Source: Candidatus Aenigmatarchaeota archaeon (GTDB lineage Archaea; Aenigmatarchaeota; Aenigmatarchaeia; PWEA01; JACQIF01). Taken from it: a DNA stretch of 64,000 bases. The stretch spans positions 352,001-416,000 of the forward strand of contig CP066684.1 in the NCBI GenBank assembly GCA_016432325.1, written 5' to 3'. The position numbers were made by a program, and so were the translations under genes. Under the pieces are notes generated by a model that worked only from the letters and a program-made list of their open reading frames with translations, did not search any database and was not told the origin of the DNA. This document shows positions 18,026 to 61,853 of this stretch, piece by piece (position 1 is the stretch's first letter; each line of letters opens with the position of its first letter).

Positions 18026-18071
18026 TTTGCGAACCCTCGGTTCGCAAACTTACGAACCGCTGTTCGTAAGA
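18026..18071. repeat. Double-hairpin palindromic element (copy 1)
   Basis: TTTGCGAACC-CTC-GGTTCGCAAA followed by CTTACGAAC-CGCT-GTTCGTAAG. Confidence 0.7.
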
Positions 18072-18239
18072 ACTTTAAAACGGCGCACGGTTTTAAATAT
18101 CCGATATGCGATAATACAGCAGGGCACTGGCATGAGACCCATTCTCCATCTCGACGAGGACACTGGTCCAGAGGACTATCCTGACGGAGTAGACCCAGAA
18201 CCGCAGCCCGACGAAAACGTATGATACGGTGGACACCAG

Positions 18240-18401
18240 ATGCTTGACAAAGACTACGTCGAAGTGGTTCTCAAATATCCCATGAAGATGGAACGGAAAC
18301 TCCTCACACAGATAATGGAATATTCGGACTTCGTCGTGGTGCAGGAGCGCTACTCATGGTATTCGGGGAGGAAGGATATCCAATCCGAATGGCTTACCTG
18401 A
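18240..18401 (+). CDS. Small hypothetical protein (53 aa)
   Basis: Manual ORF MLDKDYVEVVLKYPMKMERK...EWLT, GGTG upstream. Confidence 0.4.
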   Translation: MLDKDYVEVVLKYPMKMERKLLTQIMEYSDFVVVQERYSWYSGRKDIQSEWLT

Positions 18402-18518
18402 ATGCCGCACAAATAACGCTTATAAATAGCTTACTTCTACACCTACAATTCCGGCGAGACGCATGATAATCCTGTAACCGTCGGTTCCGGATTATCACGA
18501 GTATATTGGTGAAGTTCG

Positions 18519-18812
18519 ATGATAATACCCAAAACGATGCACCGCTACTGCGAGAAGTGCAAGAAGCACACCGAGCAGAAGGTCAGGCGCGAGAAGGTGG
18601 GCGCCACGAAGAGGCGCACGATGGCCGGCGGCCAGCGACGCTATCTGAGACTCATGAAAGGCTATGGAGGCTTCCCGCGCCCGGATCCGAAAGGCCGCGA
18701 AAAGCCGACTCGCAAAGTGGACATCCGCTACGCATGCCTGGTCTGCAAGAAAGAGCACATCATAGGACAGGGCTTCCGCGCCAAGAAATACGAGATAGGA
18801 AAGGGTGAATAA
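18519..18812 (+). CDS. rpl44e: 50S ribosomal protein L44e (eL42)
   Basis: YCEKCKKHT...KGYGG..RP...KPTRK..CLVCKK. Confidence 0.95.
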   Translation: MIIPKTMHRYCEKCKKHTEQKVRREKVGATKRRTMAGGQRRYLRLMKGYGGFPRPDPKGREKPTRKVDIRYACLVCKKEHIIGQGFRAKKYEIGKGE

Positions 18813-19002
18813 TATTCCAATACAACAGCGCGTCACGAGTTCAAAGTTCGTGGAAGTCGAGTGCCAGAAATGCAAGAACGAGCAGGTCGTCTTTTCGAAG
18901 CCGTCCGCTGACATAAAGTGCCTTGTTTGCGGAGAAGTCCTTGCCAAAGCGACGGGCGGCATCGCCGACTTCCAAGCCAAGATAAAGAGTCTTCTGGATT
19001 AG
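18805..19002 (+). CDS. rps27e: 30S ribosomal protein S27e
   Basis: SKFVEVECQKCKNEQVVF...CLVCG..LAKATGG. Confidence 0.95.
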   Translation: MNNIPIQQRVTSSKFVEVECQKCKNEQVVFSKPSADIKCLVCGEVLAKATGGIADFQAKIKSLLD

Positions 19003-23304: not shown

Positions 23305-23889
23305 ATGCAAAAAGACAATCCAGCAGACATGTACCCCAGGCTGAAGCGCGGCCCGCAGACTCTCTTGCAGAAAGACATCGGTCTCATCCTCGCCTACACA
23401 GGCGTCTCTGACGGCTGGCGCGTCATCGAGGGCGGCACAGGCTCAGGCGCTCTGACAATCTATCTGGCCAACGCCGTGCGTCCGTCAGGCAAGGTCTACT
23501 CCTACGACTGGCGGCCAGAACACCAGAGCGTGGCCAAGCACAACATCAATCCCACGTCGTTGAAGAGTTTCGTGGTTTTCAAAGAGGCCGACATCTACGA
23601 GACGGATTTCACAGAGAAGGACGTGGATATGGTGACGCTGGACGTCGCAGAACCGTGGCACGTCTACAAGGCCGCCAAGAACTCCCTGAGAAGCGGCGGT
23701 TTTCTCGTCACGTTCATACCCACGTACGAGCAGCTGAAGAAGTGCACGCGTTCTTTGGCGCGTTCCAAGTTCCGCGACATCAAAGTCGTCGACTGCCTGT
23801 TGAGGGAATACAAAGCCGAAGAAAACTCCACGCGCCCGGAGAGCACAGGAATAATGCACACGGGATTCCTGATATTTGCGAGGAAGTGA
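23305..23889 (+). CDS. trmI: tRNA (adenine-N1)-methyltransferase TrmI, copy 1 (short)
   Basis: KRGPQ...KDIG, EGGTGSG, LDVAEPW, TRP...HTGFL. Confidence 0.88.
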   Translation: MQKDNPADMYPRLKRGPQTLLQKDIGLILAYTGVSDGWRVIEGGTGSGALTIYLANAVRPSGKVYSYDWRPEHQSVAKHNINPTSLKSFVVFKEADIYETDFTEKDVDMVTLDVAEPWHVYKAAKNSLRSGGFLVTFIPTYEQLKKCTRSLARSKFRDIKVVDCLLREYKAEENSTRPESTGIMHTGFLIFARK

Positions 23890-26313: not shown

Positions 26314-26883
26314 CTATTTAGGCCCGGGAAGCGGCACGCGCCTGAACTTTGCCCTTTCGACGCACGAATTGTTGGTCATATTCTGGTGCCGCAGGAGGGC
26401 CAGCGCCTCCTTATGCAGTGTGCGGGTGGAGCTGGACTCGACGCACTCCTCTATCACGTAGGTGAACATCCCCAAATCGAAGGCCTCGTATGCGGTGGCG
26501 ATTATGCAGTCGTTCGTGTCATAACCCGCGACGTGGACCTCATCTATCTTATGCTTCCTGAACAGGGCGGCAAGGTCCGGCTTTCCCTTGAACGCGGATT
26601 TGGTCTCCTTTTCTATGCGCACCGACCCCAGCGTGCGCAATGCCTCGGCCAAGACAGGGACCGTGAAAAAGCCTGCGTTCCTAGGGCATGTCCATTTCTG
26701 CTGCCTGTCCCAGATGCCGCCGCGTTCCGCGTGGAACAGCGCCTCCGCATAAAGATTGTAATCGACGCCGTCAAGAAGGCGCCTGATGTTTTGTATTACG
26801 TGCCTGTTTCCGCGGTTGACGAAGGCCGGCTGGACGTCGACAACAATCAACGCGCGCCTTCTGCCCGTGTCTGGTATCCGCAT
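26314..26883 (-). CDS. Isochorismatase-like cysteine hydrolase
   Basis: ALIVVDVQ, K..SAF, GYDTNDCI (D-K-C triad). Confidence 0.85.
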   Translation of the reverse strand: MRIPDTGRRRALIVVDVQPAFVNRGNRHVIQNIRRLLDGVDYNLYAEALFHAERGGIWDRQQKWTCPRNAGFFTVPVLAEALRTLGSVRIEKETKSAFKGKPDLAALFRKHKIDEVHVAGYDTNDCIIATAYEAFDLGMFTYVIEECVESSSTRTLHKEALALLRHQNMTNNSCVERAKFRRVPLPGPK

Positions 26884-27058
26884 GCAAGTAGCATCACTCG
26901 CGGTCTTAATAAGACTGCGGAAACGAGATGCACAAGTCCGCTTCGGTCATCGGTGGCTGGAGCAATCGAATGGGCTACAAGAAGATATTGTGGGCGGTGG
27001 CGAGAAAGTAATGTTTAGACGCAGTTGCAGCGATCAATCAAGTATTTAAGTTTGCACG

Positions 27059-27751
27059 TTGAACCTGACAGAGGCGAAAGATGTGGGTTCCAAAGCCGCG
27101 GTTATTGAACGAACGAATGTTCTGAAAGATGATTATAAAACGATTGCAAACCGGGGAGGCATACGAATCGTTCTGAACTACTTCGGTTTTCCAACTGTGT
27201 CCAGAGAAGCGGAATCTCTTGGACCGACGAAGCTTGTTGCATACCCATACGTCACGCTTGGCGGGCCTCTCGGAATCAGCGGCGAATCTCTAGCCTTCTG
27301 GACGAACGAAAGTAATGGAGAAGCGAGTTTGGAGGCGGCAATGCAATCCTCCATCGAGCAGTCAGCAGGATTACAATCCTTAAGACTCAGAACGCCAACA
27401 TCCCTGTCTTACCACAAGAACGACTGGTCTTCTGTCCAAGCGCCGTGGATGCTTCACCCCTTCTTCGAAGAAGAGTGGGTAAAAAACGACGGCACGACCG
27501 TTGAAGATGTATTGGTGCCGTTCCTAGCACATAGAATGAATACCAAATTGGACCATGATGGAAAAGGCCCTGTTACTCTTTATGTCCTCGATCCGTCATG
27601 GGCGGACGTCTTGGAGAAAATGGAGGCTGGGTTGGGTTCCAAAATGCGCTATGAGAAAACTGTTAATCTTCTCCATTCGCCTGTCACAGAAGAAATAACG
27701 TTGGAAAGGTTTAAGCAAAATTTAGAAGCACACAGAAAAGGTTCGCGCTAA
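27059..27751 (+). CDS. Hypothetical protein
   Basis: 230-aa ORF, more AT-rich than neighbours. Confidence 0.55.
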   Translation: MNLTEAKDVGSKAAVIERTNVLKDDYKTIANRGGIRIVLNYFGFPTVSREAESLGPTKLVAYPYVTLGGPLGISGESLAFWTNESNGEASLEAAMQSSIEQSAGLQSLRLRTPTSLSYHKNDWSSVQAPWMLHPFFEEEWVKNDGTTVEDVLVPFLAHRMNTKLDHDGKGPVTLYVLDPSWADVLEKMEAGLGSKMRYEKTVNLLHSPVTEEITLERFKQNLEAHRKGSR

Positions 27752-27863
27752 CCATTTAGTCTAATTTACAGCATTCTGCTCATCCAGACGAACTCGTGCC
27801 CTCAGGATATCTCAGGCCGGATGTCTTTAGCGCCATTTTATTCTCCTTCGCCAATTCTATCCC

Positions 27864-28700
27864 ATGATACTCCGCCACCCTTCAGCCGCAGGCCAGTACT
27901 ATCCGCGCGACCGCGTCTCTCTGGAACAGACGCTGACGGCGCTCACGCGCCGCGTGCGAACTCCTAAAAGAACGGTCCTCGGGGCTCTGGTGCCGCACAG
28001 CGGTGTTACGTACTGCGGAGAAACGCAGGCTTACGCGTACAAGTCCTTCGCCGGCTCGCCAATCTTCGTCATAATCGGCGCGAACCACGCGCGTCTGGGC
28101 GCACCCTACGCGATAATGACTCAGGGAACATGGGCCACGCCTCTGGGGAACGTCGGCATCGACAGCGAGCTTGCGAAAGCGATTGCGTCCAAAGCGCCCA
28201 TCCTCGCCAACGACATTCAAGCCTTCACGCAGGAACATTCCATAGAGACGCAGCTCCCGTGGCTGCAGCACCTCTTCCGCGACGTCGCATTCGTGCCGAT
28301 AAGCATCTACGGCGATGACGCCACCGCTTACAGGACGATCGGCGTTGCGATTCGTGCGGCCGCGAAGGAGACGGGCCGTTCCATCGCCGTGATTGCATCT
28401 TCGGATCTGACGCGCTACGGCGCGTCTTTTGCGTTCGCGCCGGTAGAAGGCGATGCCGCTCTCGACTGGATAAAGGAAACCGATCAGGCTGTGCTGGAAG
28501 CAATCGCGAAGATGGACGTCGAAACGCTTCTTAACGCCGCGGAAAGGACGAACTTATGCGGTCTCGGAGCGATAGCAACGATGCTCTACGCCTGCATGGA
28601 GGTCTCTACAGGAGGCACGCTGCTCCAGTACGCGACGTCTTTTCCCATAACACGCACGACGAGCGCCGTTACGTCGTACGCGGCTGTCGTGATGGAATAA
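27864..28700 (+). CDS. MEMO1 family protein (AmmeMemoRadiSam protein B)
   Basis: AGQYYP, PHSG, WATPLG, EHSIE, SSDL, CGLG. Confidence 0.9.
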   Translation: MILRHPSAAGQYYPRDRVSLEQTLTALTRRVRTPKRTVLGALVPHSGVTYCGETQAYAYKSFAGSPIFVIIGANHARLGAPYAIMTQGTWATPLGNVGIDSELAKAIASKAPILANDIQAFTQEHSIETQLPWLQHLFRDVAFVPISIYGDDATAYRTIGVAIRAAAKETGRSIAVIASSDLTRYGASFAFAPVEGDAALDWIKETDQAVLEAIAKMDVETLLNAAERTNLCGLGAIATMLYACMEVSTGGTLLQYATSFPITRTTSAVTSYAAVVME

Positions 28701-29579
28701 TCAAGCCGTCAGCACCGCGAGCGTTATCGCGGCGGCGAGCGTGACGACGAGACCTATCTTCTGGTGATTGAGCAGACGCTCCTTGTTGACCAGCAAACCG
28801 AGCAGCGCAGCAAGCGCGATATAACTCTCGGACAGCGCGACAGATATTGCGATGGGTATGAGGCTTGTCGCGTAAGCGAACAGCACCCACGCGCCGTTGT
28901 CCAGAAGCGTGGAAGAGAGAACGAGCCTCGGATTGTGGCCGACGTCGCTTATCAGCTTCGCTATGCGACGTTTATCCGAGAATATGTAAGCTCCGCAGAG
29001 CATTGCGATAATGCCGTGCGCGAACCATATCGTCACGAGGGGGTCCGTGACGCGCGACGCAAGGCCGACGAGGAATGTTCCGATGCTCATGAAGAATGCG
29101 CCTGCAACGGCCAGCCACACGCCGCGTTCGAGCCACGCCTGCTTGGACAGGTGGTGCGCCTTGACAGCTACCATCACTATGCCTGCCAATATCAGGCCGC
29201 TCAAGCCGAGTTGCACAGGCGTAAGCGACTCTCTCAGTATGCTGAAAGCCAAGAGTATCGTAATCGGCACCTCAAGCGCCAGAACGGGCTCGACAACGGC
29301 TATCTTGCTCTTTTTCAAAGCCTCGAAATAGAAGATGCCTGCGAGGAACAGAGTCAAGCCGGCCCCGGACAGAACGGGCAGATCCGCGCTCTGGAAAGAG
29401 AAGAGCGAAGGTATTTCTTTGTAGATGAAGGGAAGCAGCGCGACCGTGCTGAATGCCGTGATGGCGAACAGCTCTTCCCAGTCGCCTATCCTGCGCGTCG
29501 TTCTCTGTATCAGGAAGTCTCCGAAACCCCAGAACAGCATCGCTCCGAAAGCCGCCAGCACTCCCAGTTCCAAAACCAT
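28701..29579 (-). CDS. EamA/DMT family transporter
   Basis: About 10 TM helices in two repeats. Confidence 0.85.
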   Translation of the reverse strand: MVLELGVLAAFGAMLFWGFGDFLIQRTTRRIGDWEELFAITAFSTVALLPFIYKEIPSLFSFQSADLPVLSGAGLTLFLAGIFYFEALKKSKIAVVEPVLALEVPITILLAFSILRESLTPVQLGLSGLILAGIVMVAVKAHHLSKQAWLERGVWLAVAGAFFMSIGTFLVGLASRVTDPLVTIWFAHGIIAMLCGAYIFSDKRRIAKLISDVGHNPRLVLSSTLLDNGAWVLFAYATSLIPIAISVALSESYIALAALLGLLVNKERLLNHQKIGLVVTLAAAITLAVLTA

Positions 29580-29629
29580 GCGCTGCGTACGTGTTAAGCC
29601 TTTTTATTCGTATCGTCCGCACGTGTTCC

Positions 29630-31303
29630 ATGGACCTCGATACCGAAATACTCATGCACGCGCTGCGCAACGCGCTCATGCACAAGGGCCGCGCGAACGA
29701 GGGCGCCGTGATATCAAAGATAATCGGCGCGCATCCGGAACTGCGCAAGGACGCCAAGCGTACGGGCGAACTCGTGAAGCGCGTGGTCGGGGAGGTAAAC
29801 TCATTGAGCGAACCGGCGCAGATGGAAGAGGCGTTGCGTCTTGGCGTCTCGCTTGAACATGAGGCGAAGCCCGAACGGGAAGGCTTGCCCGACCTTCCGA
29901 ACGCGCAGGAGGGCGCGGTCGTCACGCGCTTCGCCCCGAATCCCAGCGCACCCCTGCACCTCGGACACTCGCGCGCTCTCCTGCTGTCGGGACTCTACGC
30001 AAAGAAGTATAACGGACGCTTCATCCTGCGCTTCGACGACACGGATCCCCGCACGAAAACGCCAATGAAAGAAGCGTACGACTGGATTCTAGAGGACGTG
30101 CGCTGGTTCGGATTTGAGCCTGACGCAATCGTGCACGCCTCAGACCGGATGGATACTTACTACAAATACGCCGTGGAACTCCTGCGCAAGAGCCACGCCT
30201 ACGTCTGCGACTGCGACACGGAGAAATGGAAGGAGCTCACGCTCGCGAAGACGGCGTGCCCGTGCCGCGCGCGAGACGCAGGCGCCCAGCATGAACGCTG
30301 GCTGAAGATGATTAACGGCGGTTACAAAGAAGGAGAGGCTGTCGTGCGCATCAAAACCGACTTGAACCACGCTGACCCTGCGATGCGCGACTGGCCGGCC
30401 CTGAGAATAATCGACGTTCCGCACACGCGAACCGGAACTGAGTATAGGGTCTGGCCCCTCTACAACCTCGCGTCTGCGATAGACGACCATGAGTTCGGCG
30501 TCACGCACGTATTCCGCGGACAGGAGCACCAGGCCAACGCGGAAAAACAGGCCTATCTCTTCAAACACATGGGATGGAAAGAACCTGACGTAGCAACGTA
30601 CGGACGACTCTTCGTCAAGGGCATCGCGTTGTCAAAGAGCGAAATCGTCAAAGGCATGAAGGCCGGAACGTACAACGACTGGGAAGACCCGCGATTGGGG
30701 ACGCTGCGCGCGTTGCGGCGCCGCGGCTTCCAGCCGGAAACGCTCGTGCATTTGATAGAGCATGTCGGCATAAAACCGAACAACGCGACAATATCCATGG
30801 AGAATCTTGCGGCGGAGAACAAGAAGTTCGTCGATTTCCGCGCGAATAGATACTATTTCGTCGCGAGTCCTGTCGAGTTCACACTCTCCGGAAAGTTCAC
30901 GAAGAAAACCGCTGAAGTGGCTCTGCATCCGGAAGACGAGGCGCGTGGAGCGCGCACGCTGAACGTGAAGAGTAAGATTCTTCTCGACGAAAAAGACGTC
31001 GACGCGTATGGAGGCAAAGAGGTCCGTCTCAAGGGACTTTTCAACGTGAAGGTCGACGTGAAAAACAAGACATTGACTTATACGGGCGAAGCGCTGGAGC
31101 GCGAGACTCCGAAGATACACTGGCTGCCGGCCGAGGAAACGGTCGCGTGCACCATCGTTATGGACGATGCAAGCGTCCTCCAAGGCAAGGCCGAAAAAGG
31201 CGTAACGAACGAACTGATAGGCAACACCGTCCAGTTCGAGCGTTTCGGTTTTGTGCGCATCGACAACAAGGAGCCGTTCGCAGCGTACTTCAGCCACAAA
31301 TAG
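29630..31303 (+). CDS. gltX: Glutamate--tRNA ligase (archaeal type)
   Basis: TRFAPNP, HLGH, RFDDTD, LSKS, QFERFGF. Confidence 0.95.
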   Translation: MDLDTEILMHALRNALMHKGRANEGAVISKIIGAHPELRKDAKRTGELVKRVVGEVNSLSEPAQMEEALRLGVSLEHEAKPEREGLPDLPNAQEGAVVTRFAPNPSAPLHLGHSRALLLSGLYAKKYNGRFILRFDDTDPRTKTPMKEAYDWILEDVRWFGFEPDAIVHASDRMDTYYKYAVELLRKSHAYVCDCDTEKWKELTLAKTACPCRARDAGAQHERWLKMINGGYKEGEAVVRIKTDLNHADPAMRDWPALRIIDVPHTRTGTEYRVWPLYNLASAIDDHEFGVTHVFRGQEHQANAEKQAYLFKHMGWKEPDVATYGRLFVKGIALSKSEIVKGMKAGTYNDWEDPRLGTLRALRRRGFQPETLVHLIEHVGIKPNNATISMENLAAENKKFVDFRANRYYFVASPVEFTLSGKFTKKTAEVALHPEDEARGARTLNVKSKILLDEKDVDAYGGKEVRLKGLFNVKVDVKNKTLTYTGEALERETPKIHWLPAEETVACTIVMDDASVLQGKAEKGVTNELIGNTVQFERFGFVRIDNKEPFAAYFSHK

Positions 31304-31336
31304 CCGTTTATAAAGCAGCTCTCACAGGAGATTTTC

Positions 31337-31900
31337 ATGGTAGGACGCATGTGGTGGAAGGTAAAGGCCTCTCTGATGGAACCTTCAAAGATGTTCAATA
31401 CGGTCTCCAAGGAAAGGGGCCTCGGCGAGCCCGTGAAATATCTGGCTGTCGTGTCTCTGGTCTCTTCGTTTCTCGCATCCGTGCTCGCCTTTCCCGGCGA
31501 CGTCGCGATGATATCATTGGTCTTCGCGGCGTTCTACGCGATGACCGTCGCGGGTTCGTTTTTTGTCGCGCTACTGACGCACGCGTGCTCGATGCTCCTC
31601 GGAGGCAAGGGAACGTACGAAGCCACGTACAAAGCCACGGCCTACGCATATACGCCGAGCGCGCTGTTCGGGTGGATACCCGTCGCCGGTTTCCTTGCCC
31701 ACGCGTACGGTTTGTACGTGTATGCCAAAGGGATATCGCGCCTTCACAAGGTCACGATGGGAAAGGCTGTTGCGATAGTCGTAGTTCCCCTGGTTCTGGT
31801 ATACATAGTATTCGTCGTGTTCCTCGCCGTTCTCCTCCTGGCTTACGCGCCTTACCTCAATGCCGGCGGGCTCCAGCCCGGATTCACCGGCTTGGTGTAG
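31337..31900 (+). CDS. YIP1 family membrane protein
   Basis: EPSKMF, LGGKGTY..T...AY..TP, GI. Confidence 0.8.
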   Translation: MVGRMWWKVKASLMEPSKMFNTVSKERGLGEPVKYLAVVSLVSSFLASVLAFPGDVAMISLVFAAFYAMTVAGSFFVALLTHACSMLLGGKGTYEATYKATAYAYTPSALFGWIPVAGFLAHAYGLYVYAKGISRLHKVTMGKAVAIVVVPLVLVYIVFVVFLAVLLLAYAPYLNAGGLQPGFTGLV

Positions 31901-32231: not shown

Positions 32232-32337
32232 GGATATACGTGCCCGTTGTTGCCTTTAAAGCTTCTGCTTTAGGCTTCCCTCCGCGGTCGCAAAGCCTTT
32301 AAATACCTTACCTTCGTTCCTAGACTACCAATGAACA

Positions 32338-32425: not shown

Positions 32426-32428
32426 CGT

Positions 32429-48563: not shown

Positions 48564-49139
48564 ATGTGGCTAGTCGACGTCTTCCACAAGATGCGGCGCG
48601 GACCTCAGATTCTGACGCAGAAGGACATAGGACTCATACTCGGGATGACAGGCGTGTCGAGCCCGTGGCGCGTGGTCGAGGCCGGCTCAGGCTCAGGCGC
48701 GCTCACGATGTTTCTGGCGAATGCAGTGCAGCCCAAAGGTCGCGTCTACTCATACGACTGGCGCAGCGAACACCAGGAGATCGCCAAGGAGAACGTCAAA
48801 CGCGCCGGGCTCACGAAATACGTGGAGTTCATTCACGGCGACATCGCCGCAGGAATCGAACAAAAGGACGTTGACATGGTTGTTCTGGATTTGGCAGAAC
48901 CTTGGCTGGTAGTGCCGCATGCCGAACGCGCACTGAAGGAAGGGAGCTTCTTCGTGTCTTACGTGCCGACGTTCGAGCAGATGAAGGAAACAGTGACGAC
49001 GCTCAGAGGCCACAGGTTCACGCGAGCGAAGGCGTACGACTATTCGATGCGCGAGTATCAAGTGGAAGAGAACGCCACGCGGCCCGAGAACATGGGCCTC
49101 GTGCACACAGGATTCCTTATATTCGCACGAAGAATCTAG
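48564..49139 (+). CDS. trmI: tRNA (adenine-N1)-methyltransferase TrmI, copy 2 (short)
   Basis: RRGPQ...KDIG, EAGSGSG, LDLAEPW, TRP...HTGFL. Confidence 0.88.
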   Translation: MWLVDVFHKMRRGPQILTQKDIGLILGMTGVSSPWRVVEAGSGSGALTMFLANAVQPKGRVYSYDWRSEHQEIAKENVKRAGLTKYVEFIHGDIAAGIEQKDVDMVVLDLAEPWLVVPHAERALKEGSFFVSYVPTFEQMKETVTTLRGHRFTRAKAYDYSMREYQVEENATRPENMGLVHTGFLIFARRI

Positions 49140-49825
49140 CCGGCCGCGTCGCCGCTTTTCATCCGCTTTCCGAGGATTTTCTTTATGTGGGGCAGCGTAT
49201 CGTCGTACACGTGCGCGCTGGTGGAGAACGTTGAAATGGCGCCGAGACGCGCTCCGAGCTTGCCCGCGACGTACTTCTGCAGGACGTACGTCTGATAGAT
49301 ATTCGCGGGCCAGCCGAAGAACATGTCGTTGCTTCTTATGAACGCAGTCGCGTTCAGGGCTCCTTCGCGCAGCTTGAAGTCGAAGGCTACTATGCCCGGC
49401 ATCTCCCGCCCGCTTGCCTGCGAATCATGCCGCGTGTCCCACGTCAGCAGAACGGCTCGTCCCGTCTCCGGACGATTCTTGAGCAACGGTATCAGAAAGT
49501 CGTCCACCTGGTTTTTGCTGTCAACGTTGAAGAGTCTGGGGCCGTATGTGTAAATGTAGTTCCTAGTTTTGCCCGTGGGCATGACGCACTCCTCTATCTC
49601 CTCCAGCGAAGGATACACCCACCTTCCCAGCGAGTTTAGGGCGGTTATCGGTTCCTCTATCCTCTTTGCAACCTGAAGGACTGTCACGAGCAGATTGAGG
49701 CAGTCTATCGAATCCCTTTGCCTGTGGTGCACCGGTTTGCCGTGCTGCATCACGTACGCGAGCACGCTCTTCCACGCCTTCAATGCGTCTTGTGATATGA
49801 TCTCCAATGGAAACGCCTCACGCAA
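49136..49825 (-). CDS. Thymidylate-synthase-like protein lacking the catalytic Cys
   Basis: YTYG.RL, NQ, RA...WD, MPGI (PC to PG), RSND, AN, SAHVY; TTG 49807 is an alternative start. Confidence 0.8.
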   Translation of the reverse strand: MREAFPLEIISQDALKAWKSVLAYVMQHGKPVHHRQRDSIDCLNLLVTVLQVAKRIEEPITALNSLGRWVYPSLEEIEECVMPTGKTRNYIYTYGPRLFNVDSKNQVDDFLIPLLKNRPETGRAVLLTWDTRHDSQASGREMPGIVAFDFKLREGALNATAFIRSNDMFFGWPANIYQTYVLQKYVAGKLGARLGAISTFSTSAHVYDDTLPHIKKILGKRMKSGDAAG

Positions 49826-51419
49826 ACGTCTGCAGATTCTTCAGTTCGCCTTTGGGCGCGTCGGCCTCGTATGCGAAGAAAGGCAGCCTGTAAGTACTCA
49901 GCAGTATGTTCACTTCTCTAAGCGCCTCCTCTGGATTTGACTCGCCTTTCTTATGCAGAGTCATCTGGAAGCCGCCGCCTAACATGTCCGACAGCAGTTC
50001 TTTCGAGCGCACGTTCTCCCGGAAGCCGTCGGAATGGAAGTCTCTGAGAGACGAAATCTCGAGACGGTCGCGGTTCAACGGAGTTGAGAAGAGACCTGCC
50101 GGCGTCGACGGGTTAACCATCGAGAAAACGGCCTGGAAGCGTGTTGGCATGCCGCACGACACGTAAATGTCCTCTTGGCTCGTGCAGAACGCGCGCGTAC
50201 GCTTGCGCATTATCCTGAAGACGCCCTCCATCACGCCCGAGTCGTACGCAGTCCGCAAGAAATCGTAGTTCCAGAAGCGTATGTAGTCCCTTGCTATCAT
50301 AAGAGCGTCCCTGCCGCCTGAGAGGTTGAGCAGGTGCTTGAAGCACGCGTCTGTCCTGCGCGCCTGCATCGAACTGGCGGAGAAGAGCGTTTTGAGAGTT
50401 CTGTGCATCAGGTCTTCAAACGCGTTGAATGAAAACTCCGCAGACTCGCAGAACTTCTTTATGTCCACCATGAGAGTCGTCTGGGCCGCGACCAGCGCCT
50501 TCGGCTGTTTGTCCAATGCCAGCCATTCCGCGTCGTCGAACGTGTAAGGCCCCGCCTTGCCCATCAAATATGGGGATTTCACAATATCCTTGTTCTTGAA
50601 GAAGACCTTCCTGGCCTTGTAGACGTTGAAGACCTCCTCGAAAAATTCGTAGTTGCCCTGAAGTTCTTTCGTGCTGGTTTCAAAGATGAACTTCACCGTG
50701 TGTTCAGCCGGAGCGTTCATCTTGAGCATCTGCAAAAGCCTCTGCCTGCCCTGCGGGCTGAGCTGCGACGGATCGACGATTACACTGAACCGGCGGTCGA
50801 AGTCCTTGCAGTCCACAAGCATCCGCTTGCAGAACTCGACCAGCTTTTCCGCCGAGTTCGCGTTGACGTGATTGGTGAAGTTGTTGACCGCGATGACGTC
50901 GTTTATCTCCGAGTAGAGGGGAGCCGCGGCCCTGTAGAGGGAAGAGAGGTCCTCCATGTCAAGCACGACGGCGTTTGCGCTGTCAAGCCAAGCCTCGCCC
51001 CCGAAACGGACGGCTATCTTCTTTTCCTCAAACGCCCCCGTGGGAAGGTTTGCGACGCGCGGCTTAGACAAAACGAGACGCCTCTTCCTATAGTCTCCGA
51101 AGACTATCTCCTCGTCCCCGTCGATGTCAAGCGCGTAGTATTTCTCGCCGCTCGTGTCCGTCCGCGTAACGCGCACCAGCTCTTTCTCGATAAGCCTGTT
51201 CAGATGGTAGAGGACGCGCCTGTGAAGCTGGGCCTTCATGCCCTTGGCCCTCCTGACTTCCTGAGGTGGCACGTATTGGCTTGTCAGGACCTTGTCTATC
51301 CTGGAGAATTCGTCTGCGTAAACGACGGAAGCAACATCCGACGTGGACATCCCTTCCTGCCTTCCCCTGAAAGCCAGCAGGACGTCTTGAGAACGCTTTT
51401 CCTTCACGATCCCCACCAA
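49818..51419 (-). CDS. Large hypothetical protein with N-terminal winged-HTH-like domain
   Basis: MSTSDVA...LHRRVLYHLNRLIEKELVRV...GEKYY; overlaps the ThyA-like gene. Confidence 0.7.
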   Translation of the reverse strand: MVGIVKEKRSQDVLLAFRGRQEGMSTSDVASVVYADEFSRIDKVLTSQYVPPQEVRRAKGMKAQLHRRVLYHLNRLIEKELVRVTRTDTSGEKYYALDIDGDEEIVFGDYRKRRLVLSKPRVANLPTGAFEEKKIAVRFGGEAWLDSANAVVLDMEDLSSLYRAAAPLYSEINDVIAVNNFTNHVNANSAEKLVEFCKRMLVDCKDFDRRFSVIVDPSQLSPQGRQRLLQMLKMNAPAEHTVKFIFETSTKELQGNYEFFEEVFNVYKARKVFFKNKDIVKSPYLMGKAGPYTFDDAEWLALDKQPKALVAAQTTLMVDIKKFCESAEFSFNAFEDLMHRTLKTLFSASSMQARRTDACFKHLLNLSGGRDALMIARDYIRFWNYDFLRTAYDSGVMEGVFRIMRKRTRAFCTSQEDIYVSCGMPTRFQAVFSMVNPSTPAGLFSTPLNRDRLEISSLRDFHSDGFRENVRSKELLSDMLGGGFQMTLHKKGESNPEEALREVNILLSTYRLPFFAYEADAPKGELKNLQTFA

Positions 51420-51434
51420 CGTTGCTTTCTGTAT

Positions 51435-51550
51435 AACCCTGAAGCTATTTAATCCCCGTTTCAGGATAATCCTGACACAGTTGTACTTTATTCTGACACG
51501 CTGAAAACAGAAGCGCTCCGTTCAGGGTTTCGTAGTATCGTGTCAGGATA
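51435..51550. promoter_or_regulatory. Candidate operator cluster ATYCTGACAC (two direct, one inverted)
   Basis: 51469-51478, 51490-51500, inverted 51539-51550; palindrome TCAGGATAATCCTGA. Confidence 0.45.
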
Positions 51551-51595
51551 GCTCTTGCGGCGGGCATTAAGTGCGTCCCTGATGCAGAAGGAGGC

Positions 51596-52210
51596 GTGCC
51601 AGCCGTATCAGAATCGTTTGATGCAATCGGCCTCTCCGAATACGAAGGGCGGGCATATGCTGCTCTTTTGAGGGTTCCCGAAGCCACGGGCCCGTGGGTG
51701 GCTCGCTCCTCGGGAGTGCCCCTTTCCAAAATCTACGAAGTCATGGCCCGCCTTGCAGAGAAAGGATTTGCCCTCTGCGGGCCTGACGCCAAGCCGAGAA
51801 AATACAAGGCAGTAGATCCTTCGATATCAATTGAGGCATTTGTAGAGGCCAGGAAATCGCGTCTCGAGAATGCGAAGACCCTTCTTCTCGCAAGGCTCTC
51901 CACGAAGATGTCCAGCGAGCAGGACAGGAGCATCTGGATTGTGAAGGGCCAGTACGCTGTTGAAACTCTCATGACATCGCTCATAAGGAAAGCCTCGAAT
52001 AGCGTCGTCTACAGGCATTCCTCGGACAGGAACAAATTCGTTCGCGCCAGACTCGAGGAGGTCGCTGCAAAAGGCATTGCCGTGGATTCCAAGCCGAGCG
52101 AGACGACGGCTAACCTTCTGAACGTGGACGGCCGCGAGTTGCTCGTGTACGCAAGCAAAGGCGAAGTGCTCTGGATACGCGATCCGCGCTACCTCAGGCG
52201 AGGCGAATAG
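51596..52210 (+). CDS. TrmB family transcriptional regulator
   Basis: GLSEYEGRAY.ALL, SGVP.SKIYEV...L..KG, PRKYKAVDP. Confidence 0.88.
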   Translation: MPAVSESFDAIGLSEYEGRAYAALLRVPEATGPWVARSSGVPLSKIYEVMARLAEKGFALCGPDAKPRKYKAVDPSISIEAFVEARKSRLENAKTLLLARLSTKMSSEQDRSIWIVKGQYAVETLMTSLIRKASNSVVYRHSSDRNKFVRARLEEVAAKGIAVDSKPSETTANLLNVDGRELLVYASKGEVLWIRDPRYLRRGE

Positions 52211-52241: not shown

Positions 52242-52913
52242 ATGGTCTTTGGAACGCTCAAGAAACTGGTCGGGGGCAAGAAGGAACCGCAGGGCCCGCC
52301 TGTCAGGCCTATCCTCGAATCCAGACCGAGACATCTTCCCCCCGAAGCCGCGCGCATACCCACGCTCGAAGACATTCCCGGCATGCAAGGCCCTCCTGAA
52401 ATTCCTGAGCCTCCTCTGACGCCTTCCATGCAAGGACGGTTTGGAACAACAGTTCCAGAGCCTCCCATGGCTCCTACAATGCAGGGATTGCGTGGAACGC
52501 TTGGCTCGGAATCCCAAATGGCGCCGCAGTCCTCTCCTTTCGAAACGTCTTCTGCAGAACCTCCTTTGCCACCGCAGATGGAGGAACGCAGGAAGCAGAG
52601 AATCGAAACGTTCAGGCGTTCGCGCGAACCGCTTCAATGGCCGCCTCCCCCGGAAGGGAGGTTCGGAACAGCTGTTCCGATGGTCGCGTCAGCGCCTTCA
52701 TCGGAATGGGCTCCGACTCCTTCTCCTGTCACACCACCACAGCAGTGGCCTGCCCCGCAGCAACAGGCTCCGCCCGAACGTCTGCAAAGACGACCGCAAA
52801 CGGTCGAAGGAGGCCTCGCAACAGTCATAGACCATCTCGATCGCATCGAGCAGAGGATAATCGATCTGGACAGGCGGCTCGCGATGTTGGAGAGCGCGGC
52901 AAGGATACGCTAG
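52242..52913 (+). CDS. Proline-rich protein with C-terminal coiled coil
   Basis: Internal repeats PEPP..P.MQG and GRFGT.VP; heptad C-terminus. Confidence 0.7.
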   Translation: MVFGTLKKLVGGKKEPQGPPVRPILESRPRHLPPEAARIPTLEDIPGMQGPPEIPEPPLTPSMQGRFGTTVPEPPMAPTMQGLRGTLGSESQMAPQSSPFETSSAEPPLPPQMEERRKQRIETFRRSREPLQWPPPPEGRFGTAVPMVASAPSSEWAPTPSPVTPPQQWPAPQQQAPPERLQRRPQTVEGGLATVIDHLDRIEQRIIDLDRRLAMLESAARIR

Positions 52914-53957: not shown

Positions 53958-54386
53958 TTAAACGTCCAGAACCACGAAAGCCTGCCAGCCTTCGCGCGTT
54001 CGTTCGACACGGAACATGTGGTATGTGATTGCCTTCACGTCCACAGAAAGGTCGTGTCTCTTCGAATCCAGCTTTTCTCCGTAGAGCGTGGCTTTGCATG
54101 CGATTTCGCTTATCTCGTCTATCTTAATCTTGCCGAACAGTAGGCGCTCCGCGTCTTTGAGGAACACGAACTCCTGCAGGAAGTTGAACATCAGGTTCTC
54201 GACGTCAGAACCCTCGACGTCTACGGTCTTCGTGACCTTCGTGTGCACGCTCGCGAGGTTGCGGACCATCGTATTCGTCACGGCCAAACCCGCGGATTCA
54301 AAAAGTTCCTTCAGGTCTTTTCCCGAAGCTTCGAATGCAACGTCGGCGAGCGAGACGTCTTCTACGAAATGATATGACATGGTCAT
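53958..54386 (-). CDS. Archease
   Basis: ADVAFEASG, DVKAITYH, VLDV C-terminus; coupled to rtcB. Confidence 0.92.
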   Translation of the reverse strand: MTMSYHFVEDVSLADVAFEASGKDLKELFESAGLAVTNTMVRNLASVHTKVTKTVDVEGSDVENLMFNFLQEFVFLKDAERLLFGKIKIDEISEIACKATLYGEKLDSKRHDLSVDVKAITYHMFRVERTREGWQAFVVLDV

Positions 54387-55936
54387 CCCTTCACGTTGCC
54401 CACAGGGATGAGACGCACCACAGGCTTCGAAATGTCTGCCTTTGCCGTGGCGTCGATGACCTCATCGATGTCCTTGTAAGCGAATCCGGCCTCCTCGGCG
54501 AGGCCCGAGTATGACACGGACTTCACGTAGATTCCTTTCTTTATCATCGGATTTATGACCAGTTCTTCCACTTTTCTTCTCTCTATTGCTCGGGCCTTGT
54601 CTCTCGGCATGTCTCTGGTGTTTCCCACAATCTCGCGTATGGCGCGCGTGCGGGACATCGTGCGCCCCGCGCCGTGGGCCGTCGAACCAAACGTCTGTTC
54701 TTCGGCGCCCTTGGTTCCGACAAGCAGGTACGAACCGGTTTCCATGGACCCGCCGATTATAACGGGCTGGCCTATGTCGCGGTACGCTTTCGGAATATTA
54801 GGGTTTCCCGGGCCGAGAGAACGCGTCGCGCCCTTTCGGTGTATCAGAAGCTTCTTTTTCTTGCCGTCGACCTCGTACTCCTCCAGCTTCGCCGTGTTGT
54901 GAGCCACGTCGTATATCTGTCTCATGCCAAGCGCCTCGGCGTCCTTTCCGAAGATTTGAGCGAAGGCCTCGCGAATCCTGTGCGCTATCATCTGGCGGTT
55001 CGCAAAGCTGAAGTTGATGCCGCACTTCATGGCGGCGAAGTAGTCCTGTCCCTCTTTCGACGTGAAAGGCGCGCAAGCCAGTTCGCGGTCAAGAATCTTG
55101 ATGCCGTACTTGCTCTCCATCACGCTCAGGAAGAGCTGCAGGTAGTCCGTAGCCACCTGATGGCCGAAACCGCGCGAACCGCAGTGGAACATCACGACCA
55201 CTTGTCCGGGGAATATTCCGAGTTTCTTCGCGTACTCCTCGTCGAAGATGTTCTCCTTCTTCACGACCTGTATCTCAAGATAGTGGTTGCCGGAGCCGAG
55301 CGTTCCGACCTGACCGAGCCCGCGCTTAACGGCTTTGTCGCTGACACGCGACTCGTCGGCTCCCTCGGCATTGCCTTCCTCCTCTGTGACGGCTAGGTCT
55401 TCCTTCCAGCCGTATCCCTTCTCGACGCACCATTCCGCGCCGCTGCTTATCATCTCCCTGAACTGACCGTGGCTCAGCTTGGCAAACCCCGCCGCGTCGT
55501 CAAAGGCCGCGGAGCCGACTCCCGCAGGCACGCGGTCATAGAGGAGATTCACGAGCTGCTTCAGCTTGGGCTCGACGTCTTTCCATGTCAAGTCCGTCCT
55601 GAGAAGACGCATGCCGCAGTTGATGTCGAATCCTATTCCTCCGGGAGAGATGACGCCGCCGTTTTCAATATCCATCGCGGCGACGCCTCCTATAGGGAAG
55701 CCGTACCCGGAGTGGCCGTCGGGCATGCACATAGCGGCGCGCACAATTCCGGGAAGAGTGGCGACGTTCGTTATCTGATCAAAGACATGGGCGTCCATCT
55801 CACCGAGAAGTTTTTTTGTGGTAAACACCTGCGCAGGCACGCGCATGCCCTGCTTGAAGGACGTGGGCACCTCCCAAATCACATCGCTTATGCGATTGAA
55901 ATCCGGCTTCTTGAACTCCCTGTCGTGGAAAGACAT
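54383..55936 (-). CDS. rtcB: tRNA-splicing ligase RtcB
   Basis: MPDGHSGYGFPIGG, GFDINCG, GSGNHYLE, HCGSRG, HRKGAT, HGAGR, AYKDI. Confidence 0.96.
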   Translation of the reverse strand: MSFHDREFKKPDFNRISDVIWEVPTSFKQGMRVPAQVFTTKKLLGEMDAHVFDQITNVATLPGIVRAAMCMPDGHSGYGFPIGGVAAMDIENGGVISPGGIGFDINCGMRLLRTDLTWKDVEPKLKQLVNLLYDRVPAGVGSAAFDDAAGFAKLSHGQFREMISSGAEWCVEKGYGWKEDLAVTEEEGNAEGADESRVSDKAVKRGLGQVGTLGSGNHYLEIQVVKKENIFDEEYAKKLGIFPGQVVVMFHCGSRGFGHQVATDYLQLFLSVMESKYGIKILDRELACAPFTSKEGQDYFAAMKCGINFSFANRQMIAHRIREAFAQIFGKDAEALGMRQIYDVAHNTAKLEEYEVDGKKKKLLIHRKGATRSLGPGNPNIPKAYRDIGQPVIIGGSMETGSYLLVGTKGAEEQTFGSTAHGAGRTMSRTRAIREIVGNTRDMPRDKARAIERRKVEELVINPMIKKGIYVKSVSYSGLAEEAGFAYKDIDEVIDATAKADISKPVVRLIPVGNVKG

Positions 55937-58114: not shown

Positions 58115-58221
58115 GCGTTGCCCGTGGTCGCGCGTCGGGCATCCCTATATAAACCCCGCGCGCCATCTTTTCGCAGGCATTTTTATGCCTTTCCGAGCGA
58201 GATTGCAGAGGTGTTCGTAAG

Positions 58222-58500
58222 ATGCCCGAATTCAAGTCCCCATACACGCGCGGTTACCACCACACGAAGAGCCGCGGGGCCGAGTCCAACGTGATATGCA
58301 GCTTCTGCGGCCGCACAGTGCCGCGCTACAAGACGATAACGCAGTCGCGGGGCTTCCGCCTCAACGACCCCGCCATAATGCAGGCGATGGACGACCGCCG
58401 CTTCATCCACACATTCGCGCGCAAGGAGTACGCCTGCCCGTCCTGCGCGCGCGGCATGAAAATCGTGAAGAAGAGGGACTACGGGAATCAGAGACGATAA
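58222..58500 (+). CDS. rps26e: 30S ribosomal protein S26e (eS26)
   Basis: SRG...V.CSFCGRTVPRYK...YACPSCA...KIV; GAGGTG RBS. Confidence 0.82.
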   Translation: MPEFKSPYTRGYHHTKSRGAESNVICSFCGRTVPRYKTITQSRGFRLNDPAIMQAMDDRRFIHTFARKEYACPSCARGMKIVKKRDYGNQRR

Positions 58501-58532
58501 CCCTTTTTATAGATATGCCGTGTTTATGGTAC

Positions 58533-59132
58533 ATGGTATTTACCGTAAGCGTCCGGGATACGAGAATTCTTGACGAATCTCTCAGGGCGCGTCGGCCAGT
58601 CACTCTGCCCGACGAATGCACGCACAACAGCCATGTTGTAAGACACCTGCTTTCTTTCGCACCGCGAGTACTGCCTGCGTTCGGAAACCTTGACGAAGAG
58701 GACGTGAAGCGCGTCGCGGACTCTGTCGCCTACCTAATGAGACCCGACTTGATAATTCACGGCATGATTGGTATGGGCCCGCGGCCTGTGGTAACCAAGA
58801 CGCTTCCTGTCATTCATGGGGAAGACGGGGTGCACGTCCACCTGAGAAACGACCCGAAGGTTCTGTCTCCTGACTGGAAGCTGGGGAAGAAAAACGAGTA
58901 TCTGTGGAATACGGGCGCCGAACTTTTCAGATGTTATTCGGGGACTCTGAGCGAGATGCCGTACGCCCTTAAGGAACTGGGAGTCGGCACAGACTACATG
59001 AAACCGGCGTTCGGGCTGGCAGACCTGACCGCGTTCCTTCTGGACCCTAGGGACTTGACGGATTACGACTATACGCCTGAGGAGATAGGCCGCTTCACCC
59101 GCACGCTGGTCAAAGAGATGCGTGAGGTATAA
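58533..59132 (+). CDS. Hypothetical protein
   Basis: ORF after TATA at 58504-58510. Confidence 0.55.
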   Translation: MVFTVSVRDTRILDESLRARRPVTLPDECTHNSHVVRHLLSFAPRVLPAFGNLDEEDVKRVADSVAYLMRPDLIIHGMIGMGPRPVVTKTLPVIHGEDGVHVHLRNDPKVLSPDWKLGKKNEYLWNTGAELFRCYSGTLSEMPYALKELGVGTDYMKPAFGLADLTAFLLDPRDLTDYDYTPEEIGRFTRTLVKEMREV

Positions 59133-59164
59133 CCCTTTTTATTCCATCGGAACGTAACTTATAC

Positions 59165-61036
59165 ATGGCTCTGGACATTCTCGGAAAGATACGCAACCTC
59201 AGAGGCGCGCTCAGGCCAATCGCGCCGAAGAAGGCGCCCACATACCAGTTCGTCCTCAGCGAGGCAGGCGGCCTTGTCATCCTTCCTGAAGAAAAAGACA
59301 CCAAGAAAATCAGCTTCACGTACGATCTCATACCTCCTTATTCGCGCGCCCAAATCCGGTGGAGCGACAGCGACCGTTCGCTCGTATATCGCCTCAGCGA
59401 GCCTACGCTGGACGACGCCGAACAGAAGGCCTATAACCTGATAACAACCTCTCTCGTAGAGCTTGTGGACGTCCAGCTGTCGACGATAAAGAACCAGAAG
59501 GAAGCGATGAACTATCTCGAGCAGAAGGTCCGCCAAATCGTTGAAGAACTTGAAATCGTGCTTGACAAGGCTTCCTACAACAAAGTGATGTATTACATCT
59601 ACAGGAACTTCGTCGGTCTCAACAAGATAGAGGCTCTGATGCACGACCCTTACATAGAGGACGTCGGCTGCGTCGGCTACCACACGCCGATATACGTCGT
59701 CCACAAGCGTTACGGCTCCATGCCTACGAACGTAATATACGACAACGAGGACGAGCTCAAGGAGTTCGTCATCAAGCTCGCGGAGAGGTGCGGCCGCTAC
59801 GTCTCGTACGCGGAGCCCCTTCTGGACGGGTCGCTGCCGGACGGCTCGCGCGTCCAGGCGTCCTTGGCAGAGGACGTCACGACCAAAGGTCCCACGTTCT
59901 CTCTGAGAAAGTTCACGAAAGAGCCTATATCGCCCATCGAAATAATAGACCTCAAGACTGCTTCGCCGGAAGTGATGGGCTATCTATGGCTGATAATCGA
60001 GCAGGGCGTTTCGATGCTGATATGCGGCGGAACGGCCACAGGAAAGACGACTCTGCTCAACGCCATAAGCATGTTCATCCCGTCCGAGGAAAAGGTCGTG
60101 TCCATAGAGGATACGCGCGAGTTGCAACTGCCGCACAAGAACTGGATACCGGCAGTCGCGCGCACGGGCTTCGGCGTTCCGGAAGCCGGGGGCGAGCGTT
60201 ACGGGGAGATAGACATGTTCGACCTTCTGAAGGAGTCGTTCAGGCAGAACCCGGACTACGTCATAGTCGGCGAGATACGAGGCAAGGAAGCGTACGTCAT
60301 GTTCCAGGGCATGGCGTCCGGCCACCCGTCAATAGGAACGATGCACGCGGCAGGCGTGGAGACCGTGGTAAAGAGGCTCATGTCTCCGCCCATCGAACTG
60401 TCGCCGAGCCTCGTCGAGATTCTTGACGTCGTCATCACGCTCGTGTTCGCGCAAGAGAAAGGCAAGTCCTCTAGGCGCGTAAAGAACGTCACGGAGATAC
60501 AATCCGTGGAACAGACAGGCAACGCGCGCACAGGAACGGCCTACAGGTGGATACCGGCGAACGACACGTTCGAACCCGGAGAAGGAACGTACGTGCTGAG
60601 CAAGCTCGCGACGATAAAGGGGATACAGCTCGCCGATATGAAGCGCGAAGTCGCGGCGCGCGCAGCCGTGCTCGAGTGGATGTACGAGAACCGTGTGTTG
60701 GGCTGGAGAGATGTCGTCGCGATAATAGACCGCTACCACCAAGACCCGAACGGCGTTCTGGCCGAGCTCGGCTTGGCCCAGAAGGGCCTGCGTTCGACCA
60801 TAGGCAGGCGCGCCGCTGCGAAGTCCATGGCCATACCAGAAGAGCCGCAGAAACCAGCGGAGGTCGAAGAAGAGCCTGCGCCGCCCAAGCCCGAAGCCTT
60901 TGAGATACCGGCTGTGATAAGACCGACGTTCGAGGAGACGCCGGTCGCCGAAACAATCGCAAAACCTTTGAAGAAGGAGGGCGCCAAGAAGCCGCCGGCG
61001 TCCAGAGCCAAGAAGAGGCCCAAGAAGAACTCCTGA
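59165..61036 (+). CDS. Type IV pilus/secretion ATPase (VirB11/FlaI family)
   Basis: LPDGSRV, GGTATGKT, EDTREL, RQNPDYVIVGEIRG, GH..GTMHA. Confidence 0.93.
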   Translation: MALDILGKIRNLRGALRPIAPKKAPTYQFVLSEAGGLVILPEEKDTKKISFTYDLIPPYSRAQIRWSDSDRSLVYRLSEPTLDDAEQKAYNLITTSLVELVDVQLSTIKNQKEAMNYLEQKVRQIVEELEIVLDKASYNKVMYYIYRNFVGLNKIEALMHDPYIEDVGCVGYHTPIYVVHKRYGSMPTNVIYDNEDELKEFVIKLAERCGRYVSYAEPLLDGSLPDGSRVQASLAEDVTTKGPTFSLRKFTKEPISPIEIIDLKTASPEVMGYLWLIIEQGVSMLICGGTATGKTTLLNAISMFIPSEEKVVSIEDTRELQLPHKNWIPAVARTGFGVPEAGGERYGEIDMFDLLKESFRQNPDYVIVGEIRGKEAYVMFQGMASGHPSIGTMHAAGVETVVKRLMSPPIELSPSLVEILDVVITLVFAQEKGKSSRRVKNVTEIQSVEQTGNARTGTAYRWIPANDTFEPGEGTYVLSKLATIKGIQLADMKREVAARAAVLEWMYENRVLGWRDVVAIIDRYHQDPNGVLAELGLAQKGLRSTIGRRAAAKSMAIPEEPQKPAEVEEEPAPPKPEAFEIPAVIRPTFEETPVAETIAKPLKKEGAKKPPASRAKKRPKKNS

Positions 61037-61148
61037 CCTCCTTTCGTCTATTTTATAAACGGACTTGACATAATAGATTTGGTGTTTGGTTGGCAGACAG
61101 AGTAAAAACAGCGGTTTTTAAAGTCCGCCATGCAGAGGTTGGTGAATC

Positions 61149-61853
61149 ATGGCAGACCGAGTAAAAAGCGGCATCCCGGGCCTCGACGACGTCATAGGCG
61201 GCGGCTTCGTCCGCGGCTCGCTGATTCTCCTCACGGGCACGACAGGAACGGGCAAGACCGTGATGGCGTCGCAGTACATATACAACGCGCTGGCCCGCTA
61301 CAAGGAGAACTGCGTCTACATCTCGTTCGAGGAGCGCGCCGAGGACATTAAGAGGAACATGGCCAACTTCGGCTGGAACTTCGAAGAGTACGAGCGCAAC
61401 GGGAACCTGATATTCGTCAAGTACGACCCGTTCCACATGGAGGACATCTACGGGCTCATCGAAAACCACATAAGGGACGTCGGCGCCACGCGAGTCGTCC
61501 TGGACTCGATAACGGGTCTTGGCCTGAACGTGCGCGACCCGTCCGACCTGAGAACGGCCATATTCAACATCGGCCGCATATTGAAGAAACTCGGCTGCAC
61601 GTCCCTGCTGACGTCAGAAACGCCGTCGGACAATCATCTGGTGCTGAGCCGCTACGGCGTCGAGGAGTATGTGGCCGACGATGTCATCGTGCTCTATTAC
61701 ATTCCCGTAGATACGGAGTTCAGGCGCGCCATGACCGTATGGAAGATGCGCGGTTCCGAGCATTCGAAAAAGATACATCCTTTCCGCATCACGGAGAAGG
61801 GAATCACGATATACCCGCACGAGGAGACCGCCCTCAAACTCGAGAGGGGCTGA
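61149..61853 (+). CDS. KaiC/RAD55-family single-domain ATPase
   Basis: SGIPGLD, GTTGTGKT, SFEE, VLDSI, KMRGS.H. Confidence 0.9.
   Translation: MADRVKSGIPGLDDVIGGGFVRGSLILLTGTTGTGKTVMASQYIYNALARYKENCVYISFEERAEDIKRNMANFGWNFEEYERNGNLIFVKYDPFHMEDIYGLIENHIRDVGATRVVLDSITGLGLNVRDPSDLRTAIFNIGRILKKLGCTSLLTSETPSDNHLVLSRYGVEEYVADDVIVLYYIPVDTEFRRAMTVWKMRGSEHSKKIHPFRITEKGITIYPHEETALKLERG

Follow-up and report, generated by a model that had tools for sequence, protein, structure and literature searches.

A 64,000-nucleotide (nt) stretch (the window; bases 352001-416000) of the genome of Candidatus Aenigmatarchaeota archaeon, a groundwater archaeon, contains short gene-less units built from two direct copies of a local target sequence (T), a core hairpin and an inverted copy of the same target. 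The genome (G000) is one contig of 874,869 nt with a GC content of 56% and is 90% complete. The units are, on balance, probably non-autonomous DNA-level micro-insertions, generated by short-range template switching from a hairpin donor and then modified by arm homogenisation and selection. Comparisons were made to a sister genome of the same genus (G001), aligned at ~71% nucleotide identity, and to a genome from another family (G019).

Structure and abundance of the units

Each unit was ordered as follows: a spare target copy (T1), the core hairpin, often two adenines, an inverted target copy of 7-13 nt (antiT), a short linker, and the target copy attached to the working gene or RNA (T2). The core sits between antiT and the spare copy. 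T ranged from 7 to 31 nt across units. The distance between T1 and T2 (the period) was 50-59 nt in 28 of 49 matches (overall range 24-130 nt), with one match in the control, and this cluster held regardless of T length. A second cluster at 90-105 nt consisted of units with a nested cassette. Units at the start of a gene or the 5' end of a tRNA were in sense orientation, and those at the 3' ends of tRNAs and of rpl15e were antisense. The commonest loop, TGCG, nearly always faced the same way within the unit (7:1), a bias suggestive of a directional donor, and a bulge of 1-4 nt recurred between the core and antiT.

The youngest copies, found in G019, were perfect T duplications of 25 and 30 nt that included the ribosome-binding site (RBS), with only ~28-32 nt of newly added sequence; young copies overall had perfect duplications of 22-31 nt. 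Much of the linker of older copies therefore probably consists of diverged sequence from the 5' portion of T. Cassettes were nested three deep at genome positions 103673, 441656, 664118, and 758964, in all cases at one central palindromic junction of the host cassette. Related units at genome positions 757307, 850343, and 852919 had a TATA-box-like promoter motif as the duplicated sequence.

The GAAAC-N4-GTTTC core hairpin occurred 32 times in G000 and three times in the Markov control, a roughly tenfold enrichment. In 15 cases, direct repeats with a length of 9 nt or more flanked both a core and an anti-copy, compared to 0-1 in controls (four Markov controls were made, one of which was degenerate and excluded). 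A tolerant scan of G000 for T1-core-antiT-T2 triplets gave 54 matches, a few being single sites counted on both strands, and block shuffles gave 2, 7, and 2; this excess (54 vs. 2-7) agrees with the initial annotation, which had read the triplet architecture from the window. Scanning every gene start without requiring the core gave only a marginal excess (19 vs. 10-17 in the control), indicating that the signal resides in the core-bearing subset. An assembly artefact was ruled out by Logan contigs from four runs (two independent assemblies, plus two shorter contigs) that were 100% identical to window positions 26783-45531, these runs probably representing one common sampling site.

Variation among relatives and origin of the units

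The suggestion that sister genomes might hold empty orthologous sites was borne out at many loci. Under a strict motif, the core was found in 39 orthologous gene 5' regions in G000 and 19 in G001, none of them common to both. G001 was empty at rpl7ae, rnp2, kaiC, and rps26e, and the target of the rpl7ae leader was single-copy in four relatives. The 48-nt coding insert of rpl7ae was missing from G001, L199, and L200 and present in L198, where the second hairpin was identical to that of G000 and the first carried a compensatory arm change and a different loop. Leader units of rpl44e numbered one in G000, one in G019, three in G001, and zero in several others; in G000, G001, G019, and L286 the antiT fitted the lineage's own start. 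L286 and L287, which share the same protein and 98% identity (657 matches, 13 mismatches), differed by one 56-nt rpl44e-leader unit. The empty orthologues and this whole-unit difference thus identify the units as insertions, or as whole-unit losses. Units are gained and lost among relatives in the manner of selfish DNA.

Some sites were shared. The rps4 unit was present in G000, G001, and G019 and, by pattern match, absent from the rest of 201 genomes, including the congeners of G019; this class-wide survey of rps4 and rpl44e leaders would miss degenerate copies. The rps4 insertion point and junction were identical in two families. The rpl15e-end unit and one tRNA-end unit were common to G000 and G001. 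The shared sites (rps4, rpl15e end, tRNA end, and the rpl7ae insert of L198) represent hot spots or else copies of long standing. A GC-rich motif had 18 copies, compared to 0-1 in 250 genomes. A genus-only burst holds for this motif alone, and is ruled out for the whole architecture by the units in G019.

The arms of the hairpins were highly symmetric. Perfect 8-bp stems numbered 67 in G000 and 2-4 in controls, as compared to 29 and 23-30, respectively, for stems with one mismatch. Stem mismatches on the transcribed strand were G-T in three cases and A-C in eight, so there was no excess of G-U pairs. In rpl15e, three synonymous changes in T2 were mirrored in antiT while T1 retained the G001-like state, and in G001 antiT fitted that genome's own codons. 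Compensatory arm changes with entirely different loops were also found between relatives. Template switching between inverted repeats is an established cause of arm homogenisation (PMC8604942, PMC3820800) and, at quasi-palindromes, is favoured by strong transcription (PMC3820800). Perfect stems, mirrored changes and compensatory arms are the expected product of this process. The same pattern appears unlike the usual outcome of selection on RNA structure.

Starting from the observed insertion products, empty sites and arm polishing, we infer a polymerase and the following order of steps. Synthesis past T would jump, through microhomology of a few bases, to a copy already present and acquire its core hairpin. 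The folded core would then direct the 3' end back along the newly made strand, and 7-13 nt of T would be copied backwards as antiT. Synthesis would rejoin the template upstream, giving the product that is seen: a unit of ~55 nt with 9-31 nt of T doubled. Later fold-backs would keep the arms perfect and let antiT track the working copy, as found at rpl15e and in the stem statistics; copies would further spread among sites that resemble each other, and become nested. Selection would finally retain harmless products, which accords with the pattern among surviving copies: in-frame length, a kept RBS, a mini open reading frame (mini-ORF) ending at the new start, a decoy beside the core, or a position within a spliced intron. 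Coding inserts were 48 or 51 nt long with the reading frame open, and in-frame insertions were found in rpl7ae, rpl5, and ORF 52242. One copy of a duplicated DPANN hypothetical protein (L261:754-1542, L262:652-1248) contained a pair of in-frame double-hairpin inserts close to the 3' end.

Several points weigh against this mechanism. Genome-wide, antiT matched T2 better in 13 cases and T1 better in ten, with nine ties; given no clear preference for T2, writing at insertion and later correction are both likely. Neither an enzyme nor an intermediate was identified, and ordinary template switching leaves the fixed length and the recurring bulge unexplained. The difference between L286 and L287 may be a gain in one or a loss in the other. 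Persistence at rps4, rpl15e, and one tRNA end over 71% identity, or recurrence in another family, also fits selection. In favour of the mechanism, the T1 mini-ORF terminated no more than 8 nt from the real start in 10 of the 14 correctly positioned cases, compared to 4 of 28 in other frames; the set of gene starts was, however, hand-picked, and three mis-positioned rows were excluded from it. This geometry is that of termination-reinitiation (PMC6728339); the mini-ORF endings seem to reflect a tolerance filter on survivors, not regulation.

A dedicated enzyme (host, DPANN or viral) is a weaker, though still tenable, candidate. It would integrate a DNA or RNA dumbbell of ~55 nt and measure the unit, with antiT acting as a guide or being written at insertion, and would seed bulge-helix-bulge (BHB) tRNA introns. 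The sharp period and the identical rps4 insertion point and junction in two families are in its favour, as are several features of the tRNA genes. Standard tools detected just 8-12 tRNA genes in G000 because most tRNA genes are interrupted. Introns at position 59/60 with a splice helix of 3-4 bp were found in at least 25 tRNA genes, in shared families. The core was inside 8 of 25 T-loop introns, in two of which the splice helix lay directly behind it, and cassettes were also nested in D-loop introns and a 16S insert. Perfect 9-nt duplications of the 3' end, with T ending exactly at the CCA end, occurred in 5 of 25 tRNAs, a per-site rate far above that at gene starts (~20 of 930). EndA, RtcB and archease, moreover, are encoded in G000. 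Against the enzyme, RtcB is near-universal in the class, and, since all tRNA genes inspected encode CCA, the boundary of T at the CCA end does not prove an RNA template. A BHB motif at both ends was found in 4 of 20 leader and coding units, compared to 21% at random, in a search that recovered the 25 tRNA introns as a positive control. The leader and coding units are therefore probably not introns themselves, and BHB splicing of leaders is unlikely. In G019 (L201-L242) tRNA genes were also mostly interrupted, with 11 detectable, so that a high density of tRNA introns extends beyond the GC-rich hairpin burst.

No mobility enzyme that accounts for the units was recovered from G000. The initial annotation had named a reverse transcriptase, a Y1 (RAYT/TnpA) transposase and IS110 as candidates; searches of the 90% complete genome gave no match to PF00078 (reverse transcriptase, for which a source in the host or a virus is possible), PF01797 (Y1) or PF01548 (IS110 DEDD recombinase). 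Cas1 and TnpB were likewise searched for and not found. Self-comparison of G000 revealed no multi-copy insertion sequence, other DDE families having had no profile search. Neither viral contigs nor the genomes of other species matched the motif of one sub-family. Two tyrosine integrases were present in G000, with no link to the units found. Subtracting the gene content of G019 from that common to G000 and G001 left 153 candidates, among which the 18 scanned included no mobility enzyme; one duplicated protein was a DPANN hypothetical. A stand-alone LAGLIDADG-like protein (weak Pfam match; L266:725-1258) was encoded in both G001 and G000, with none found in G019. NucS was absent from G000 and from most of the class. 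RNase HII and FEN1 were present, which rules out their loss as an explanation; both, like EndA, RtcB and the histones, are of general occurrence. A Y-family polymerase was encoded in G000, and not in G001 or G019. Histones occurred in all five genomes checked and therefore do not discriminate; a histone-sized ruler for unit length is only an idea. A LexA-like operator was ruled out by the variable loop length. A bolder form of the enzyme proposal, likewise tenable but less probable than template switching, has a dedicated length-measuring DPANN insertion pathway write an inverted target copy into each new element; beside a tRNA loop, this copy would form the splice helix, and the pathway would then also give rise to new archaeal tRNA introns.

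The initial annotation had set a mobile or template-switching process beside a bistable translational switch, whose ON and OFF states would have antiT paired with the decoy and the real start, respectively. The former is supported by empty orthologues, whole-unit polymorphism, perfect duplications of 22-31 nt, and lineage-matched antiT. Selected RNA switches are improbable. Units with covarying arms do occur at rps4 and rpl44e across family boundaries, many of the hosts are ribosomal protein genes, folding predictions permit both the antiT-T1 and the antiT-T2 pairing, and the coupling of mini-ORFs to starts exceeds chance. Yet units are also found at either end (5' or 3') of tRNAs, at one stop codon, within genes with the frame preserved and in tRNA introns, targets that make a general translational switch unlikely. 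Their presence is patchy (0-3 copies at rpl44e) and whole units are polymorphic at 98% identity; the units at 3' ends are antisense, predicted states vary by site, and a G-U excess is lacking. The units had no match in Rfam. A regulatory role may exist at the single long-lived sites rps4, rpl44e, and rpl15e. Least credible of all are fixed palindromic repeats of the REP, Rickettsia palindromic element (RPE) or double-hairpin kind whose target likeness is chance plus selected mimicry: this explanation applies to the fixed cassettes (18026, 41928) and to the second hairpin of the rnp2 type, and the fixed second hairpin of rpl7ae may merely mimic displaced codons, but the young copies rule it out for the triplet class, as a small fixed pool cannot yield perfect gene-specific duplications of 12-31 nt with site-specific anti-copies.

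Units and neighbouring features in the window

The site coordinates of the initial annotation were confirmed in the window sequence, and its gene names were right wherever checked. Its claim of a shared logic at about a dozen loci stood in part: full units were found at rpl44e (with a degenerate core), the rpl7ae leader, the nitroreductase, the 43634 gene, the kaiC-like gene, and 42856, while rnp3 and rps26e were weak and 18026 and 41928 were fixed. The double-hairpin inserts at 18026, 32451, and 41928 were upheld, and the one at 42856 proved to be a full unit antisense to the rpl15e 3' end.

The cleanest unit was that of the 43634 gene (43578-43644, plus strand; T1 43578-43589, core 43591-43606, antiT 43609-43618, T2 43633-43644; period 55). 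Its mini-ORF ends early, and the predicted fold conceals the decoy and frees the real start (pairing of T1, 0.99; of T2, 0.06). The rpl44e unit (18463-18528, plus strand) contained T1 at 18463-18472, the degenerate core at 18475-18487, antiT at 18489-18497, an RBS at 18508-18512, and T2 at 18519-18528, which is the real start (period 56). The nitroreductase unit (36727-36789, plus strand; T1 36727-36733, core 36738-36752, antiT 36756-36765, T2 36783-36789; period 56) had an empty orthologue in G019. The kaiC-like unit (61091-61167, plus strand; T1 61091-61108, core 61103-61120, antiT 61123-61132, T2 61150-61167; period 59) had an RBS motif ahead of both T copies, with T1 at the ancestral TTG start; the empty G001 site also had a TTG start. 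The rpl15e 3'-end unit (42839-42919, plus strand, antisense to the gene; T1 42839-42855, core 42858-42877, antiT 42880-42893, T2 42903-42919; period 64) was also present in G001.

The rpl7ae gene carried two inserts on the plus strand. The leader unit (32346-32425) contained T1 at 32346-32371, including the RBS, the core at 32373-32386, antiT at 32388-32394, and T2 at 32400-32425 (period 54). The in-frame double hairpin (32450-32497) added 48 nt, or 16 extra codons, and its second hairpin re-encoded EDLSK. Positions 32330-32365 of the leader resemble a kink-turn hairpin; the flanking motifs are retained in three relatives, and the insertion doubles the 3' half of the hairpin. Autoregulation by L7Ae is known.

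Two further units were found beyond those first listed. At 37613-37700, two tandem 51-nt hairpin units with an 18-nt perfect repeat lay in non-coding sequence downstream of ftsZ, and the adjoining segment was conserved in G019. In the proline-rich ORF 52242-52913 an in-frame unit (52402-52465, minus strand; period 51) duplicated PEPP, with a second core near 52663; the extra segments were missing from the G001 protein.

Other examples did not hold fully. The rnp2 insert (40942-40997, minus strand), situated after the rnp3 stop codon and ahead of the rnp2 start, had a core (40978-40994), but its second hairpin, with an RBS, came from a fixed family and its T barely exceeded the start codon; G001 was empty and G019 had its own unit. 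The rnp3 leader (41705-41750, minus strand), annotated at 41747, contained a relative of the second hairpin only. The rps26e leader (58175-58226, plus strand) had a short insert that held an RBS and a 5-nt copy of the start, with G001 empty. In both of these leaders the core was absent and T was just 5-7 nt, singly no better than chance. The cassette at 18026-18070, with two 9-bp stems, was an ordinary five-copy repeat whose arms are not target-derived, which contradicts the statement that T differs at every site; it was adjoined by a third hairpin of the AAAAC type (18074-18097), and the orthologous region upstream of STT3 in G001 was empty. A second fixed double-hairpin cassette (41929-41977) lay between rnp3 and pvlArgDC.

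Several other features of the window were recorded. The non-coding segment at 37730-37800, downstream of ftsZ, had 85% identity to two G019 copies and no Rfam family, and is probably a small RNA without prior description. The archease and RtcB genes were adjacent (53958-55936), with ~50 residues of RtcB ahead of the Pfam domain. Methyltransferase-like paralogues at 23305-23889 and 48564-49139 were still alignable as DNA. The segment at 49136-52210, common to G001, contained a thymidylate-synthase-like gene, a 529-aa protein without a Pfam match, and a TrmB-like gene.

Comparison with known elements and significance

For every known family considered, the units lack at least one defining feature. 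REP/REPIN elements with RAYT (Y1) transposases are, like the units, paired extragenic hairpins in mosaic arrays. In G000, by contrast, no Y1 enzyme was found, the arms are partly target-derived, and the target duplication is long; only the core is shared among triplet units, a fixed sequence across copies being seen in cassettes such as 18026. Miniature inverted-repeat transposable elements differ in that the triplet units have no terminal inverted repeats, and duplications of 7-31 nt instead of a short fixed length. Retroelements and DGRs are set apart by the reverse transcriptase, and IS110 bridge-RNA elements by the DEDD recombinase, that profile searches of G000 did not find. Fungal mitochondrial double-hairpin elements resemble the units on the same grounds as the yeast mitochondrial GC clusters.

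The GC clusters (GC42; PMC4478555) are closest in behaviour: gene-less palindromes of 40-60 nt with conserved stems and variable loops, merging or nesting, patchy in close relatives, and of unsettled mechanism. Conserved stems, variable loops, nesting and patchy presence were all found in the units here. The GC clusters differ in having fixed arms and a 2-nt target duplication (PMC4478555), whereas the units have duplications of 9-31 nt, an inverted target copy, a constant period, and an archaeal chromosome as host.

Within genes, the closest behaviour is that of RPEs, with which the palindromic elements of M. jannaschii are grouped as palindromic inserts. RPEs are tolerated in frame in conserved proteins, and differ in being ~150 nt with a conserved peptide (PMC10969869); the units are 48-51 nt, encode a variable peptide, are target-like, and lie for the most part at the ends of genes and tRNAs. 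Template switching at quasi-palindromes and templated insertions perfect inverted-repeat arms, leave clustered substitutions, and are favoured by high transcription, but import no shared core and set no fixed length (PMC8604942, PMC3820800). The transposed BHB tRNA introns of Thermoproteales and ARMAN (PMC4033280) resemble the introns at position 59/60, several of which hold the same core. Leader, trailer and coding units differ in lacking the splice motif and keeping the frame, and are probably not spliced.

No description combining target-derived inverted arms, long duplications and a fixed period was found in open-access text, and one may exist elsewhere. The triplet class appears to be a new category; the fixed cassettes alone are a variant of known palindromic repeats. 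Because the copies differ at each site, repeat finders miss the triplet class. It is a gene-less class of insertion in which duplicated starts, RBSs and tRNA ends mend the damage of insertion, and in these reduced genomes the units rewrite leaders and add 16-17 residues to conserved proteins. The constant period hints at a molecular ruler. The modules in common with the very numerous tRNA introns offer a testable lead on the origin of archaeal introns.

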